UHGV virus genome: UHGV-1377021
From: a virus
Length of the DNA stretch: 23,643 nt
Reading direction: 5' to 3' (one strand)
Shown here piece after piece: positions 6,366 through 23,643 of this stretch. The stretch's first letter is position 1. Each line of letters starts with the position of its first letter. The notes beneath the pieces are model-generated. The model made no database searches, was not told the origin of the DNA, and saw only the letters and a program-made list of their open reading frames with translations. A program made the translations under genes and the position numbers.

Positions 6366-6794
6366 ATGAATATGGCGACTGAATCAAAAGCTGGTCGCCC
6401 CTCTGATTATATGCCGGAGGTGGCTGACGATATCTGCTCGTTGCTTTCTTCTGGCGAGAGTTTGCTGAAAGTATGTAAGCGTCCTGGTATGCCGGATAAG
6501 TCCACTGTTTTCCGCTGGTTGGCAAAGCATGAGGATTTTCGCGACAAGTACGCGAAGGCAACTGAGGCACGAGCTGATTCTATTTTCGAAGAGATATTCG
6601 AAATTGCTGACAATGCGATTCCAGATGCTGCTGAAGTGGCAAAGGCAAGACTTCGCGTTGATACACGCAAATGGGCGCTGGCCCGAATGAATCCCCGTAA
6701 GTATGGCGACAAGGTAACTAACGAGCTTGTCGGCAAAGACGGCGGCGCAATTCAGATTGAAACATCACCGATGAGCACTCTATTCGGAAAATGA
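6366..6794 (+). CDS. Terminase small subunit (P22 gp3 / Sf6 gp1 type)
   Basis: 140-142 aa, MATESKAGRPSDYMPEVADDICSLLSSGESLLKVCK...; I recognise this as essentially the Sf6 small terminase sequence. Start may be the ATG at 6366 or 6372. Confidence 0.85.
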   Translation: MNMATESKAGRPSDYMPEVADDICSLLSSGESLLKVCKRPGMPDKSTVFRWLAKHEDFRDKYAKATEARADSIFEEIFEIADNAIPDAAEVAKARLRVDTRKWALARMNPRKYGDKVTNELVGKDGGAIQIETSPMSTLFGK

Positions 6795-18021: not shown

Positions 18022-20018
18022 TGGCTAAAGCATGGAAAGATGTTATCGCCTCTCCACAGTATCAGGCGTTAGCACCAGAACAAAAAGCGCAGGCTCAGGA
18101 GCAATACTTCAATGAAGTCGTGGCCCCGCAAGCCGGAGAAAATGCAGAGCAGGCTAAGCAAGCTTTCTATGCTGCCTATCCATTGCCATCTGTGCGGCCA
18201 GTGGAGACACAACAACCAGTAGCACAGCAACAACCACAGCAAAGCGGATTTATGTCTGATCTTGGTGAAGCAGTAAAAGAGACTGGTCGCGGACTGGTGC
18301 AGGCTGGCGTGAACGTGGCAAACATACCTGCATCAGTTGCCGATGCTGTAACAAGTGCGGCTGCATGGGCTGGCGGTAAACTCGGCATTGGCGATGGTAC
18401 ATATCAACCAGCGCCACGAGTAACAACGCAGGGATTAGAGCAGGATTTTGGCCTTCAGCAAGGCGCGCTGACTCCACAAACGACAGAGGGCCGGGTGTTT
18501 GCTGAAGCATTGCCTTACCTCACTCCTGCTGGCGTTGAGAGAGCGGCAACACAGGCACCAACACTTGCTGGCCGAATTGCTCAGGGGGCAACTCGCCTTC
18601 TCGCAGAAAACGCAGTTGGATCACTTGCTGCAAACAGTATGAAAGATGATGCGGAGGCACTCGCTACCGATTTAGGTGTTGGCGTTCTGGCAGGCGGCGC
18701 TATTAACGCTGCTGGACGTGGATTAGGTGCTGCTTATCGTGGCGTTCGCGGTGCTATTGCGCCAGAAGCGCAGCAAGCTATCAGATTTGCAGAGCGTGAA
18801 GGAGTTCCTCTGCACACCACAGACCTGTTACAACCCACTTCCCGCGTCGGAAAAATGGCGCAGACTACAGCAGAAAATATCCCTCTGGCTGGCACAAGCG
18901 GAATGAGAGCAACGCAACAGGAAGCGAGAAGCCAGTTGGTGCAGAGATTTGCTGATAAATTCGGTGAGTATGATCCAGCGGTTATTATTGACAGCCTTAA
19001 AGCGAAAACATCAGGAATTCGTCGCGCTGCCGGTAATCGACTGGAGCAGGTTCAGAATGCTATGGCTGGAGTAAACATTCAGCCTGCGCGAGCAATTCAG
19101 CAGATTGATACAGAAATATCTAACCTGCAGAAGCTTGGTAAGGTTGCTGATAACGAGACTATTTCAAAACTTCAGTCCTATCGTGATGAGCTTGTTCGCA
19201 ATGCTGGTCCTGATGGTCCGGTAAATCTGGATTTGAAGCAATTAAGCGACCTGCGCAGCCAGTTCAGAATGGACGTGAAGGGTGAGCGACCAGTGTTACC
19301 AAACCGTTCCGATGCTGCCATTCAGCGAGTTTACAAGGCGATGACAGACGACATCAATGGTGCCATTGGTCAGAATCTTGGCAACGATACTCTCCGTAAA
19401 TATCAGCAGGCCAATGCCGTATACGCTGACGAAGCAGCGAAACTAAAGAATACCAGGCTGAAGAATGTTCTCATGAAAGGCGACCTGACGCCGGAAGTTG
19501 TCAACAACATGCTATTCAGCAAGAACAAATCGGAAATTAAGACGCTGTATAACTCAGTTGGTCGTGTTGGCAGAGCGCAAATGCGCAATGGCATCATTGG
19601 AAAGGCGATGGAGAAATCTGGCGGATCCCCTGACCAGTTCCTTCGGCAGCTTAACATCCTGCAAAACCAGACTGGCATCACATTTAAAGGTCAGGAAGCC
19701 GCTTATCTGAAAGGATTGAAAAACTACCTGCAATCCACGCAACAGGCTGCAAAAGCGGCAGTAACAACACCAACAGGGCAGCAAACCATCCCGTTCATTA
19801 TCGGATATGGGACGGCAATGAACCCGGCGACAACTGGCGCAGCAGTAAGCTACGGACTTCTTACTCGCGCCTATGAGAGCGAGCTATTCAGAAATGCAAT
19901 GCTCCGAATGGCAAACACCCCACGCGGATCAACGGCGTTTGAGAAAGCCATGCAGCAGGCGCAAAAGGCCATTAACGCCCTTACTCAGGGTGCCAAGTCT
20001 GATGCGTTGTCAGAATAG
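18021..20018 (+). CDS. Ejection protein (P22 gp16-like)
   Basis: 665 aa ORF in the gp16 position; Q/A-rich low-complexity N-terminal region; start overlaps the upstream stop (TAATG). Confidence 0.7.
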   Translation: MAKAWKDVIASPQYQALAPEQKAQAQEQYFNEVVAPQAGENAEQAKQAFYAAYPLPSVRPVETQQPVAQQQPQQSGFMSDLGEAVKETGRGLVQAGVNVANIPASVADAVTSAAAWAGGKLGIGDGTYQPAPRVTTQGLEQDFGLQQGALTPQTTEGRVFAEALPYLTPAGVERAATQAPTLAGRIAQGATRLLAENAVGSLAANSMKDDAEALATDLGVGVLAGGAINAAGRGLGAAYRGVRGAIAPEAQQAIRFAEREGVPLHTTDLLQPTSRVGKMAQTTAENIPLAGTSGMRATQQEARSQLVQRFADKFGEYDPAVIIDSLKAKTSGIRRAAGNRLEQVQNAMAGVNIQPARAIQQIDTEISNLQKLGKVADNETISKLQSYRDELVRNAGPDGPVNLDLKQLSDLRSQFRMDVKGERPVLPNRSDAAIQRVYKAMTDDINGAIGQNLGNDTLRKYQQANAVYADEAAKLKNTRLKNVLMKGDLTPEVVNNMLFSKNKSEIKTLYNSVGRVGRAQMRNGIIGKAMEKSGGSPDQFLRQLNILQNQTGITFKGQEAAYLKGLKNYLQSTQQAAKAAVTTPTGQQTIPFIIGYGTAMNPATTGAAVSYGLLTRAYESELFRNAMLRMANTPRGSTAFEKAMQQAQKAINALTQGAKSDALSE

Positions 20019-20107
20019 CTTCGCAAACACCAGGAACGTGCAAAAACCAAATATGTAGAACGCAATATTCAGCATATCTCTTTGCATAAATCCTCCGTAA
20101 CGGATGG

Positions 20108-20368
20108 TTAGCTACTGTCTTTTTTATATAGCTTCTTGAGCGTATCAAAGACAATTTTCTTAACCATATCCGATTGTTGTTCTGCCATACGCTCTGCATC
20201 GTCAATGTAAACTGATGCAGAGCTTTGTTTATCCAATGATTCTTCAATCGCTGCAATTATCTCTGAGTTCAGCGACCTGTTATTCATCTTCGCACGCTGC
20301 TTAATTTTCGCGTGGAGTTCATGCGGAAGTCTCAAGTGAAACTGCGCCTCGTCGTATTTGCTGCACAT
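20108..20368 (-). CDS. mnt: Mnt-like ribbon-helix-helix repressor (Arc/MetJ superfamily)
   Basis: 86 aa from the ATG at 20368: QFHLRLPHELHAKIKQRAKMNNRSLNSEIIAAIEESL...NDAERMAEQQSDMVKKIVFDTLKKLYKK closely parallels P22 Mnt as remembered. The track ORF extends to 20560 but the extension has no homology. Confidence 0.75.
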   Translation of the reverse strand: MCSKYDEAQFHLRLPHELHAKIKQRAKMNNRSLNSEIIAAIEESLDKQSSASVYIDDAERMAEQQSDMVKKIVFDTLKKLYKKDSS

Positions 20369-20513
20369 CCTTGATGCCTCACCTAATGGGTGGAATGGCA
20401 TCGTAAAACCTACTGTACAAATCAACAATCGTACCATTTCGGTATATAACAAACGCCAACCGTAGCCATGCTGCGGCGATTCCTTGCATCTGGAGCAAAT
20501 TAAATGACAGACA

Positions 20514-21008
20514 TTATCTAAAACAAGCAAACTCGCCATGATATTTTTCCCTGAATGCAATAGACATTAATTCGGCCAGCTCAATATCATCGGTATACCC
20601 AAGGCAAATAGACTTACCTTTTAGTTTGAACATAACTTTATATGTGTTTTTCCCTTTAAGAAGATGAACTCCTTTTATACCTGTATTGGATGATGAAACG
20701 CTGTTGGTTTTATTCTGACCTCTAGTTACTTCTCTTAGGTTTGAAATTCTATTGTCATTTTTAACCCCGTTAATATGGTCAATTAACCCTTTAGGCCAGC
20801 ATCCTTTCATATAAAACCAAGCAAGTCGGTGGCAAAGATACGATTTTCCATTAATCCGTATTGATAAGTAGTCGGCCTTTGAGTTCGTCTTAAATCCAGC
20901 AACCTTTCCGATACTGGAGCTACCAGAAGCTATCTTCCAAGTGAAGACGCCTGTTTCTGGGTTGTAGTTGAGTGAAGAGGTTAATTCTTTATGAGTAATC
21001 ATATTCAT
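20514..21008 (-). CDS. HNH endonuclease with C-terminal AP2-type DNA-binding domain (homing-endonuclease-like)
   Basis: 164 aa; HNH_3-type motif LIDHINGVKNDNRISNLREVTRGQN followed by an AP2-like segment (GIKGVHLLKGKNTYKVMFKLKGKSICLGYTDDIELAELM); the gene is visibly AT-rich relative to the flanking structural genes. Confidence 0.7.
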   Translation of the reverse strand: MNMITHKELTSSLNYNPETGVFTWKIASGSSSIGKVAGFKTNSKADYLSIRINGKSYLCHRLAWFYMKGCWPKGLIDHINGVKNDNRISNLREVTRGQNKTNSVSSSNTGIKGVHLLKGKNTYKVMFKLKGKSICLGYTDDIELAELMSIAFREKYHGEFACFR

Positions 21009-21028
21009 TCCTTAAATAGAGATTCACT

Positions 21029-23002
21029 ATGTCAAATATTGTGCCAAATGTTATAATTTCAATGCCAAGTCAACTATTTACGTTAGCCAGAAAATTCCAG
21101 GCCGCAAGCAATGGCAAGATATTCATTGGTAAGATAGATTCCGATCCTACGCTCCCACAGAATCAAGTGCAGGTTTATGTAGAGAATGAAGACGGCTCTC
21201 ACGTTCCTGTTTCGCAACCAATCATCATTAATGCTGCTGGATATCCGGTATATAACGGACAGATTGCCAAGTTCGTAACTGTGCAAGGCCATTCTATGGC
21301 TGTTTATGATGCATACGGTGCTCAGCAGTTTTATTTTCCGAATGTTCTGAAGTACGATCCTGACAGATTGCGACAGGATTTAGCGCTTCCAACAGGCGCT
21401 GAGCTTGTAGGCGTGCAACCACAAGGAAATCTTTCGCAAGTCATTCAGTTTGTATCTCCAGAGCAGTTTGGCGCCATCGGAGATGGTACGGTTCATCCAT
21501 TATCTGAGCGTTATGCGACTCTTGCAGCAGCGCAGGCTGTATACCCATTCGTAACATCTCTGACCCAGACAATTGACTGGGCAGCGTGTCAGGCGGCTGA
21601 GAACTATGCGCGTGGGAAATGTCCGGTTCGCTGTCCTTATTATGCTAAATATCATTTCGGAAACAGTGATTATCTTGAGCTTGGAATAAATAGTAAATGG
21701 TTTGGCGGGGTTAATGTTAATCGTGATTCTGGTGGCACCAGAATGATCAGAACTATACCATTATCGAAGCCACCTTTCGGGCAGGATTGCGTTGTTCGCG
21801 TCATGGATGCCACTAAAGCGGGTAGTTCCGATGAGTTCGTGCGAGGAATAGTCTTTGATGGTTTTGTCTTAGATAGGGGTACAGTTAGAAGGGCCGCCAG
21901 CAAAGGGATGGGGACCATCTGCTTTCATGCAAACTATGGTATGGGGATGACGCTAGGATTAATTGCATTTGGTGCAGAATACGGCGTTTTCGGATATAGT
22001 TTTTGGGCGAGTACGGGGTGGCTTAAAATTGATAGTTGTCATAAGGCATTCTGGGCTGATGCAACATTAATCACCCCTGAAAATCCATCGGTTCCTTCAG
22101 GGGCAGTAAATACAACATTTGACTTTGATATAAGAATTGATGCGTGCGTATTTGGATTGGTTCTGAATCGCGTGAAATATTCAAAATTTACAGGGTATAT
22201 TGAAGGGATTGCAGTCAGTAGTTCGTCAGTACCATTCCCAATATATGATAGCGAAAATGAAACTGCAATTGCTATCACAGCTGTGAGGTGCGATAGCGTA
22301 GACATAACCGAAATGGGCATTGAGTACTGGGAAGGTGTTCATGTTTACTCCAACGAATCAACGCTAAGCGTTAACATGTCATGGACTCAGGATAAAACCT
22401 TAAAAAATACTACTGGTAAACATGGCCCTTATCAGTCTGTATCCCAATTAACTGGTGTTACTGAGTTATTCACGCTACCCTCAACAAATAATAGCTATTA
22501 CTATTCTGTTAATAAATCTCTTTTAACATTAAGAAATATGACAGGAGATATGTCAGGTGCTTCCTTTGCAAATACATTCTTGGTGACAGTTGACGCAAAT
22601 GCAAGATTTCTGATGATGAATACAGGAGTTTATTTTGGGTCCTCACGTTTAATAGCGCCAGCAAACTGGGCCAACATTGAATGCATAAACGATCCGTTTA
22701 TGCCTAATTATTTGGTTCCAGAGGGTTATCGTTATGAAGGTAGGGGCCAGTGCACTGCAAGATCTTGGTCCTTGAAAGCGATCAATGGAGGTGATGGAAA
22801 GGTAAGCCTTAATTATGGCTCTGAGATACCTACTGGTTGGGAGCTTATAGATTGGACAGTGCATGTAATAACTGAAAACAAATCTCAAGCCTCATCCATA
22901 GGCATATCATCAGTAAGCAATAATAGTGTGACCTTCCAAACTAATGTTACGTCTGCTGGTTTTTCAATACAATATAAGCTTCGGTTAAGGGTATCTAAAT
23001 AA
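21029..23002 (+). CDS. Tailspike: conserved P22-type N-terminal head-binding domain fused to a divergent C-terminal receptor-binding domain
   Basis: 657 aa; residues 1-~110 (...[29 protein letters not shown]...[15 protein letters not shown]...NVLKYDPD) parallel the P22/Sf6/HK620 tailspike head-binding domain. The rest has an FGAIGDG motif typical of beta-helix glycanases; its C-terminal third is AT-rich. Confidence 0.85.
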
Positions 23003-23007
23003 TAAAT

Positions 23008-23035
23008 AAAAGCCCCTGCGGGGGCTTTTGGTTTT
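23008..23035. terminator. Bidirectional intrinsic terminator between convergent genes
   Basis: AAAGCCCC-TGC-GGGGCTTT hairpin flanked by T-runs on the + strand (TTTTGGTTTT) and by A-runs upstream (T-rich on the minus strand). Confidence 0.6.
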
Positions 23036-23643
23036 AGCTGCATGTCTCGTTCCTGAAAACTGCATGATAGATAGAGCCATTTTTAATTATGGTATAAATA
23101 CCATTCCATCTTTTTACGACACTACCGCATATTTCGCTTGCAGGACCTTTATAACTACCCTTCTCTGCCTTGAAAAAAGGCGATTCTATTTCAGCAAACA
23201 TTCTTGTCGTACTCCACCCTAAGTCAGGGTGAATTATGTCCTTTGCAAATGGATATCTGGTATCAATTCTTTTAGCAATTTGGGGGTATGGAGGATAACC
23301 ATGTATAACCAGTGGTGAGTCAAGGCTTATTTGTGACATATCAGATCGCATCTCTTGGGTTGTCTGAGATTCAAATCGGTACATGCTTTTGGTGAAATTA
23401 ATTAAATTCGTTATTATTGACATGTTAAATATCAATGCAATCATTACTGAGGCGGTTGAAATAATGTTTTTTCTCCATTGCATTAGCGATGCAAAGCATA
23501 GAAGTAACATAACCAGTGAATTGAATCCAATCATAACCCTAGGGTAGTATGCGGGATCCTTAGTCAAGAAAAACATTGCGCAGGAAAATAACAACCCAAA
23601 TGTTATGCAGCAAAAATAAAAGGCAGATTTTAATGTCACATTA
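23034..23643 (-). CDS. Integral membrane protein, 5' end outside the window (possible O-antigen modification enzyme, GtrC-like)
   Basis: Frame is open to the window edge (no ATG at 23639, so the true start lies beyond 23643); at least three TM segments then a soluble C-terminal domain; AT-rich; convergent with the tailspike, where P22-like phages carry gtr or oac genes. Confidence 0.45.
   Translation of the reverse strand, partial: NVTLKSAFYFCCITFGLLFSCAMFFLTKDPAYYPRVMIGFNSLVMLLLCFASLMQWRKNIISTASVMIALIFNMSIITNLINFTKSMYRFESQTTQEMRSDMSQISLDSPLVIHGYPPYPQIAKRIDTRYPFAKDIIHPDLGWSTTRMFAEIESPFFKAEKGSYKGPASEICGSVVKRWNGIYTIIKNGSIYHAVFRNETCS

Follow-up and report, generated by a model that had tools for sequence, protein, structure and literature searches.

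The interval between gene 16 and the tailspike gene 9 of P22-like phages is hypervariable, with ten types recognized among sixteen genomes, and was named the 'ant moron' in the epsilon34 genome paper; mnt-only forms of it are known in ST64T, ST104 and Para1, and it is wholly absent in Sf6 (PMC2629481). The P22 record places sieA, orf59a, mnt, arc, sar and ant (the immI region) in this interval, in agreement with the preliminary description of the locus that we analyse here. This locus is the counterpart of the P22 interval in a 23,643-nucleotide (nt) stretch of the virus genome UHGV-1377021 (hereafter the window, that is, the whole stretch analysed), where an mnt homologue is followed by a gene for an HNH endonuclease and then by the tailspike gene. 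We conclude that the locus probably consists of two independent things, an ordinary mnt-only interval and a free-standing HNH-AP2 homing-endonuclease cassette. From the comparison of related sequences, it appears nearly certain that the HNH element is a separately acquired mobile cassette that is unrelated to the loss of arc and ant.

The other relevant systems are endonucleases. For the free-standing homing endonucleases of phages, flank co-conversion, marker exclusion and the mutual replacement of different endonuclease genes at one locus have been described (PMC2988022, PMC2790892). MobA-MobE and SegF/SegG of phage T4 ('intronless homing') resemble the window element in that a stand-alone nuclease open reading frame (ORF) is located between conserved genes or at the edge of one, is present in some relatives and missing from others, and travels with a flank that forms a co-conversion tract, and in that different endonuclease genes occupy one locus in related phages (PMC2988022, PMC2790892). 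By analogy, the anatomy of the window cassette appears to match that of the free-standing homing endonucleases documented in T-even phages. The differences are that the host is a temperate P22-like phage or prophage, that the DNA-binding module is predicted to adopt the AP2 fold, and that the insertion interrupts an essential structural gene within its first few codons, for which the 5' end carried by the cassette makes up. I-HmuI of Bacillus phage SPO1 (PDB 1u3e), an HNH nicking endonuclease, shares the D-H...N...N catalytic arrangement with the window protein but is encoded in an intron and ends in a helix-turn-helix domain, whereas the window protein is free-standing, with an AP2-type C-terminal domain; the two are only 27% identical over the aligned part. 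The closest counterpart in position is Kapi1_066, annotated as 'HNH endonuclease' in Escherichia phage vB_EcoP_Kapi1 (MT813197), which shares family, architecture and strand with the window gene and has exactly the same junction upstream of the tailspike gene. Literature searches on HNH endonucleases with tailspikes or P22-like phages, and on Kapi1 with endonucleases, yielded no paper that discusses the element.

The window is the late region of a Sf6/HK620-like Lederbergvirus, with 95-97% nucleotide identity to Sf6, Gally and HK620 over most of positions 6372-20088. The locus is composed as follows (aa, amino acids):

18021-20018, plus strand: gene for a P22 gp16-type DNA transfer (ejection) protein (PHROG 770 'DNA transfer protein', 6e-238; 96% nucleotide identity to Sf6 gene 13), bordering the variable 'ant moron' interval on the left

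20108-20368, minus strand: mnt homologue, 86 aa (Pfam Arc 7.7e-15 and Repressor_Mnt 8.9e-15)

20459-20503, plus strand: conserved boundary sequence, annotated in CUS-3 as 'bsq1' and common to filled and empty sites

20504-20516, plus strand: 13-nt remnant of the original tailspike start, ATGACAGACATTA, identified by comparison of empty and filled sites

20514-21008, minus strand: HNH endonuclease gene, 164 aa (Pfam HNH_3 4.3e-15; PHROG 99 'HNH endonuclease' 6e-61)

20517-21178: mobile cassette of 662 nt, comprising the HNH gene, a 20-nt spacer and the foreign first 150 nt of the tailspike ORF

21029-21178, plus strand: foreign tailspike 5' segment, codons 1-50, delimited by an identity profile, tblastn and alignment

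21029-23002, plus strand: tailspike gene, 657 aa (Pfam Head_binding over residues 1-113, the P22 head-binding domain)

The positions and strands of mnt and the HNH gene, as well as the divergent tailspike start 20 nt from the HNH ATG, are as first described, and so is the low GC content of the HNH region, 0.335-0.405 across 20500-21100 vs ~0.50 in gene 16. The gap between mnt and the HNH stop codon is only 145 nt.

The structure of the insertion is revealed by aligning the window with empty sites (Escherichia coli M9 and CUS-3) and filled ones (E. coli ET479 and YZ22PE165 and phage Kapi1). In empty sites, the boundary sequence ends with the original tailspike ribosome-binding site, GGAGCAAATTAA, which is directly followed by the tailspike start, ATGACAGACATTACAGCCAATGTG; the intact start reads GGAGCAAATTAAATGACAGACATTACAGCCAATGTG..., with ATGACAGACATTA joined to CAGCC across the position of the junction. 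Filled sites read GGAGCAAATTAAATGACAGACATTA and then TCTAAAAC; next come the minus-strand HNH gene, the 20-nt spacer and a new tailspike start, ATGTCAAATATTGTGCCA. At the junction itself, ATGACAGACATTA abuts TCTAAAAC. What separates filled from empty sites is therefore a clean insertion, located at nucleotide 13 of the tailspike ORF. To its left, at 20492-20516, the former ribosome-binding site and 13 nt of the former start survive, and the last three bases of the remnant are the complement of the HNH stop codon. The remnant start also opens a mini-ORF of five codons (20504-20521, ATGACAGACATTATCTAA) that overlaps this stop codon. The boundary sequence follows ant in CUS-3 and Kapi1, and the insertion falls to the right of it, within the tailspike ORF, and therefore not in immI; the suggestion that the endonuclease replaced or invaded the arc-ant segment does not fit this position.

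The tailspike gene stays intact because the cassette brings a foreign replacement for its first 150 nt. Over these 150 nt, nucleotide identity to E. coli-type alleles is 53-63%, and it then jumps abruptly to 93-100%. The 50 foreign residues are 82-86% identical to those of the Proteus phages Brookers and BPM-V3, compared with ~71% for E. coli phages (tblastn); the nucleotide sequence of the segment differs from the Proteus-phage and the E. coli-phage alleles alike. We considered mere synonymous recoding as the source of this divergence and rejected it: there are ~17 amino acid changes in the 50 codons, and the product is Proteus-phage-like. The combination of a Proteus-phage-like tailspike fragment with low GC content points to an unsampled low-GC P22-like phage as the donor of the cassette. 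The segment is presumed to be an immune version of the nuclease target. It also contains one further feature:

21035-21062, minus strand: promoter-like site TTGAAA-16 nt-AATATT, oriented towards the HNH gene (9 of 12 consensus matches in the scan)

This site is a weak candidate for the HNH promoter (the scan gave 6 promoter-like sites in the region vs 3.4 +/- 1.9 expected from shuffled sequences, barely above chance), and such a location of the promoter would explain why the tailspike segment always travels with the gene. Within 21009-21028, the new tailspike ribosome-binding site, TAGAGATTCACTATG, is much weaker than the displaced one, GGAGCAAATTAAATG; the tailspike may be translated less as a result, which could make the element costly to its carrier.

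The cassette occurs in 7 of 5426 complete E. coli genomes (657-nt probe, 20514-21170). It is complete every time and 99.1-99.5% identical to the window, and the copies are 99.0-100% identical to each other. The next 190 nt, within the head-binding domain, are 80-92% identical between pairs of carriers, the receptor-binding parts are unrelated, and the left flanks are unrelated in most pairs, being near-identical only among three carriers with mnt-arc-ant. In carriers, tailspike nucleotides 1-150 are 99.6% identical and nucleotides 151-340 are 88.0% identical, vs a baseline of 93.9% and 87.9%, respectively, among 104 distinct cassette-free alleles, so that the homogeneity of the cassette stops sharply at its edge, nucleotide 150. 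The surroundings differ as well: the cassette stands beside full mnt-arc-ant modules in E. coli WP4-S18, ET734 and K71-77, beside a P63C antirepressor gene in E. coli ET479, and without any adjoining immI genes in E. coli YZ22PE165. The exact window HNH protein is encoded on at least 23 NCBI contigs. Among the eight of these contigs listed, seven have an Arc/Mnt-type repressor gene and an antirepressor gene beside the HNH gene (an Mnt-type gene together with an Arc gene in six, sieA in three), and one (L167) has the mnt-only layout of the window, with 97.2% identity and a different receptor domain. The 12 loci with a window-type cassette and enough tailspike sequence carry ~12 unrelated receptor-binding domains. 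With its precise presence/absence polymorphism and its near-identical copies in unrelated backgrounds, the element appears to be foreign, mobile and of the homing type, as the preliminary description had proposed.

None of the 12 complete copies examined has a disrupted HNH ORF, and they differ from the window by at most 2 amino acids. At codon 44 (20877-20879), the window has Lys44 and all 11 other complete copies compared have Gln44; some contigs encoding the Lys44 protein carry P22-type endorhamnosidase tailspikes, which suggests that these are Salmonella prophages. The window tailspike itself has a chimeric head-binding domain, with megablast matches to phages ending near 21383; its receptor-binding part (21380-23002) is AT-rich, with a GC content of 0.34-0.45, and no deposited phage matches it closely at the nucleotide level.

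The HNH_3 domain of the encoded protein (PF13392) scores 55.5 bits against a cut-off of 24.8, and the residues D77, H78, N86, N90 and N102 are invariant in 44-48 homologues, which removes the concern that the HNH motif might not hold up on alignment. The closest solved structure by sequence is I-HmuI (E 7.7e-4), the alignment covering its D74-H75...N; I-HmuI is also the top Foldseek match (probability 1.00, 109 columns). The next Foldseek matches are plant AP2/ERF domains (TEM1, ERF1 and WRI1; probability 0.95-0.99, root-mean-square deviation 1.3-1.8 A over 46-55 residues), and the AlphaFold2 (AF2) model, with a predicted local distance difference test score (pLDDT) of 93.5, contains strands at residues 114-117, 122-129 and 132-139 and a helix at 142-156. 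The predicted order of domains is an N-terminal beta domain, an I-HmuI-like HNH domain and a C-terminal DNA-binding domain of the AP2 fold. At the level of sequence profiles, Pfam AP2 gives no hit in the window protein even at E<10, NCBIfam returns nothing for it, and the AP2 match in Kapi1_066 is weak, 27.6 bits vs a cut-off of 33.3; PF00847 is precomputed in about half of the HNH homologues. The earlier label 'HNH-AP2' is upheld by the predicted structure, but for the window protein it finds no support in Pfam.

Copies annotated with PGAP start at the second ATG (21002) and comprise 162 aa. The PADLOC 'homing endonuclease' model gives a weak match (5.6e-7). Outside the cluster of proteins with 98-99% identity, relatives are at most 52% identical, and a scan of GTDB species representatives returned only distant relatives, 37-42% identical and from unrelated taxa, which are uninformative on lineage. 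The phage most similar to the window overall, vB_EcoP-683R2 (ON470594), encodes an HNH homologue with 45% identity at 32056-32532, in the lysis region, so that this HNH family is found at more than one locus of P22-like phages.

At the tailspike junction, three lineages of HNH-AP2 genes are represented. A pattern scan of IMG/VR for the junctions yielded 23 filled loci vs more than 120 empty ones among the matches listed, and the filled loci are of three types: that of the window, that of Kapi1 and a third (L028 and L033). The Kapi1 type has only 42% protein identity to the window HNH, is found in 15 of the 5426 E. coli genomes and, in Kapi1, adjoins a full Arc-Arc-antirepressor module, in contrast to the window. 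The third type encodes an HNH-AP2 protein of ~170-184 aa and is inserted at the same base after ATGACAGACATTA (at 10525 in L033, in the window orientation), with an altered tailspike start (MTDSINANV...); in L028, there are no immI genes between gene 16 and the HNH gene. All three lineages are joined at exactly one base, with the stop codon TAA made by the ATTA of the remnant. The altered tailspike 5' ends measure ~150 nt in the window type, ~75 nt in the Kapi1 type and ~36 nt in the third type, and the stretch that is altered in all three, only about nucleotides 8-36, flanks the insertion point.

We propose the following scenario. A phage or prophage that bears the cassette would meet a related phage that does not, and the nuclease would nick or cut the conserved sequence around the tailspike start of the cassette-free relative. 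Repair would then copy the cassette from the carrier, through the boundary sequence to its left and the conserved head-binding region to its right, and the outcome would be biased inheritance of the element. The carrier would be immune, its own site having been split by the insertion and its own tailspike 5' end having diverged. The carried 150 nt would restore the essential tailspike gene and probably also hold the HNH promoter. The intact 31-nt empty-site sequence has no match in the window even with 3 mismatches allowed, so that the carrier allele is consistent with self-protection if this sequence is the target. Should the nuclease be active, the cassette would be a selfish DNA-cutting element at the very boundary where P22-like phages swap tailspikes, and it would give a concrete explanation of some of the mosaicism and host-range changes in this well-studied group of temperate phages. 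In addition, it would represent a compact homing element that enters an essential gene by bringing a replacement for the displaced piece.

Several considerations weigh against this scenario. Enzymes of the I-HmuI type nick DNA and do not cut both strands. That three deeply diverged lineages share an identical left junction could stem not from repeated homing but from a single ancient insertion, with vertical descent and replacement of the gene thereafter. The element is infrequent: the window and Kapi1 lineages together account for ~2% (22 of ~1,100) of the E. coli genomes with a P22-like tailspike junction. Ordinary modular recombination, for which the region is already a hotspot, could move the cassette by itself. 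The left homology in YZ22PE165 is only ~27 nt long. Finally, the candidate sites for the HNH promoter and, as described below, the Mnt operator match their consensus sequences only weakly.

The cassette could also be viewed as a passive passenger, with an HNH protein that is inactive or irrelevant to its spread and with movement by ordinary homologous recombination at the boundary sequence and the head-binding domain. Both the interval and the tailspike are established hotspots of recombination (PMC2629481), the association with ~12 different receptor domains is what would be expected of unlinked tailspike alleles, and the low frequency argues little for strong drive. However, such a passenger would hardly retain an intact ORF with so few amino acid changes across 12 copies and with conserved catalytic residues, nor would its homogeneity be expected to end sharply at nucleotide 150, with background diversity directly beyond, or three HNH lineages to sit at one site, each with altered target-proximal sequence. 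Because the intact ORF, the sharp edge and the three lineages are hard to explain otherwise, we favour nuclease-linked selection and regard passive carriage as rather unlikely.

Under a different account of the same activity, the nuclease of a prophage would cut the tailspike start of incoming relatives, protecting the lysogen or the resident phage, with homing as a by-product. The cassette lies in the moron region, where P22 has sieA and other genes expressed from the prophage, the HNH gene runs opposite to the late operon and probably has a promoter of its own, and there is the weak match to the PADLOC homing-endonuclease model. The mechanism is, however, the same as in homing, so that the two are inseparable by sequence, and the cassette coexists with sieA in some prophages. 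As the primary role of the element, exclusion seems to us improbable, if still worth keeping in mind.

Homing, which we prefer over passive carriage and exclusion, can be extended to a broader and distinctly tentative proposal, namely, that tailspike nucleotide 13 is a dedicated homing-endonuclease hotspot in P22-like phages, where at least three HNH-AP2 lineages compete and where the breaks drive the exchange of tailspike receptor modules and of immI. If this proposal, which we consider possible but doubtful, were true, the exchange would span temperate phages of Escherichia, Shigella, Salmonella and Morganellaceae, with shifts in host serotype range, and the Proteus-like tailspike fragment would be the footprint of a cross-family transfer.

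We now turn to the other component of the locus, the mnt-only interval. No homologues of arc, ant or sieA were found by tblastn in the whole 23.6-kb window, where five Ant and three Arc queries gave no match better than E = 0.04, so these genes are indeed missing, as first described; an Rfam scan of 19900-21300 produced no RNA family match, hence no sar counterpart of that kind. The absence of arc and ant is a common, already described variant and no novelty of the window. In phages IME10 and Sf101, mnt stands alone between gene 16 and the tailspike gene, without an HNH gene; in Gally, mnt abuts the tailspike gene, with two further genes upstream of mnt in the interval; and E. coli M9 likewise has an mnt-tailspike junction without HNH. 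This HNH-free junction, detected with a 502-nt probe across it at a coverage of at least 80%, is present in 238 of the 5426 complete E. coli genomes. Of the 140 IMG/VR loci that share the tailspike junction and extend 450 nt or more to its left, 37 encode an Mnt homologue no more than 450 nt from the tailspike ribosome-binding site. For annotation, the locus shows that the HNH gene has nothing to do with the lack of arc and ant here, and that an apparent Mnt control region persists in mnt-only phages.

The window Mnt is 49% identical to P22 Mnt and, as in P22, has both domains, the ribbon-helix-helix N-domain and the tetramerisation C-domain. The beta-strand residues are QFHLRLP in the window vs HFNFRMP in P22. 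The 77 nt upstream of the window mnt are co-linear with the Pmnt/O_mnt region of P22 and include three features:

20400-20428, minus strand: Pmnt-like promoter TTGTTG-17 nt-TACGAT, with 7 of 12 consensus matches, at the position of P22 Pmnt (TTGAGA-17-TATCAT)

20431-20445: candidate Mnt operator GTACCATTTCGGTAT (TACC-N5-GGTA), at a position homologous to that of P22 O_mnt

20373-20402: inverted repeat GATGCC-N18-GGCATC, identified in a repeat search, which encloses the mnt Shine-Dalgarno sequence

The Pmnt-like site is below the threshold of the consensus scan and is a putative promoter by positional homology. The candidate operator lies within 20369-20513, the stretch in which the preliminary description had proposed to look for a palindrome, and it appears to be conserved within the window class of Mnt. 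Its arms are only 4-5 bp long. In most relatives, the form is TACCG-TTT-CGGTA. The 17 loci with a window-type mnt next to the tailspike gene have 13 distinct sequences between the two genes; all of these keep the palindrome, with a single variant at a central base, and the neighbouring bases vary. Loci with Mnt next to the tailspike gene fall into two classes, both with a palindrome at the O_mnt position: the P22-like Mnt class (DDPQFNLRLP) has AAGACCAC-N-GTGGTC, which resembles the AGGTCCACGGTGGACCT of P22, and the window class (DEAQFHLRLP/T) has GTACC-RTTTC-GGTAT at the same position. Both the recognition residues of the window Mnt and the candidate operator are unlike those of P22, and the P22-type O_mnt (GGTCCACGGTGGACC) was sought upstream of the window mnt and is absent there. 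A second copy of the candidate operator was not found beyond chance in the window, including the vicinity of a Rha/ANT-domain gene at 1239-1964.

Given that an operator-like palindrome and a Pmnt-like site stand at the O_mnt/Pmnt position of P22, Mnt most likely autoregulates and blocks rightward transcription from its upstream region. It had been suggested that Mnt is left without an obvious adjacent target; instead, its own upstream region is kept, with the operator-like palindrome in place. The inverted repeat at 20373-20402 was rejected as an operator, since it covers the mnt Shine-Dalgarno sequence and is common to Mnt classes with different recognition residues; for these reasons, a role in the mRNA or some other role is likelier. 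Its arms are conserved in both Mnt classes and its interior varies (Gally, M9, IME10 and IMG/VR loci), and it may form an mRNA hairpin that limits mnt translation. The longest ORF that holds mnt is 20108-20560 on the minus strand, which starts with TTG at 20560, encodes 150 aa and overlaps the HNH 3' end; the 86-aa product is favoured over the 150-aa one by comparison with P22 Mnt and by PGAP calls. Some phage records (Sf101) give a 97-aa form of Mnt, with a start at the ATG equivalent to 20401.

The arrangement of the two genes could suggest a domesticated nuclease with expression tied to Mnt, as was proposed earlier. The HNH gene lies upstream of mnt, both being on the minus strand, and the consensus scan found no terminators at all and neither promoter nor terminator sites between the two genes, so that read-through from the HNH gene into mnt is possible in the window genome. 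Against such a link, the sole operator-like site is downstream of the HNH gene, the presumed cassette promoter is at the end far from mnt, and the cassette occurs with three different, unrelated Mnt/Arc types or with none. In view of the position of the candidate operator and of these varied associations, Mnt-linked control of the nuclease is very improbable. The remaining idea, that the endonuclease invaded or replaced arc-ant(-sieA), remodelled immI and orphaned Mnt, takes its appeal from the absence of these genes in the window and from the location of the HNH gene between mnt and the tailspike gene, but it is practically untenable: empty and filled sites refute it by placing the insertion inside the tailspike ORF, HNH-free mnt-only junctions are common, and relatives with the identical HNH gene alongside complete mnt-arc-ant(-sieA) modules, or beside no immI genes, contradict it in substance.

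Two further genes of the window deserve mention. At 1239-1964 on the plus strand, in the nin region between NinX and YbcO/RusA, is the gene for the 241-aa Rha/ANT(KilAC)-domain 'antirepressor-like' protein referred to above, which is not a P22 Ant homologue and has no Mnt-operator-like site nearby. At 23034-23639 on the minus strand, a gene for a GtrC/Wzy-like membrane protein (PHROG 4829, weak Wzy_C) runs to the window end.

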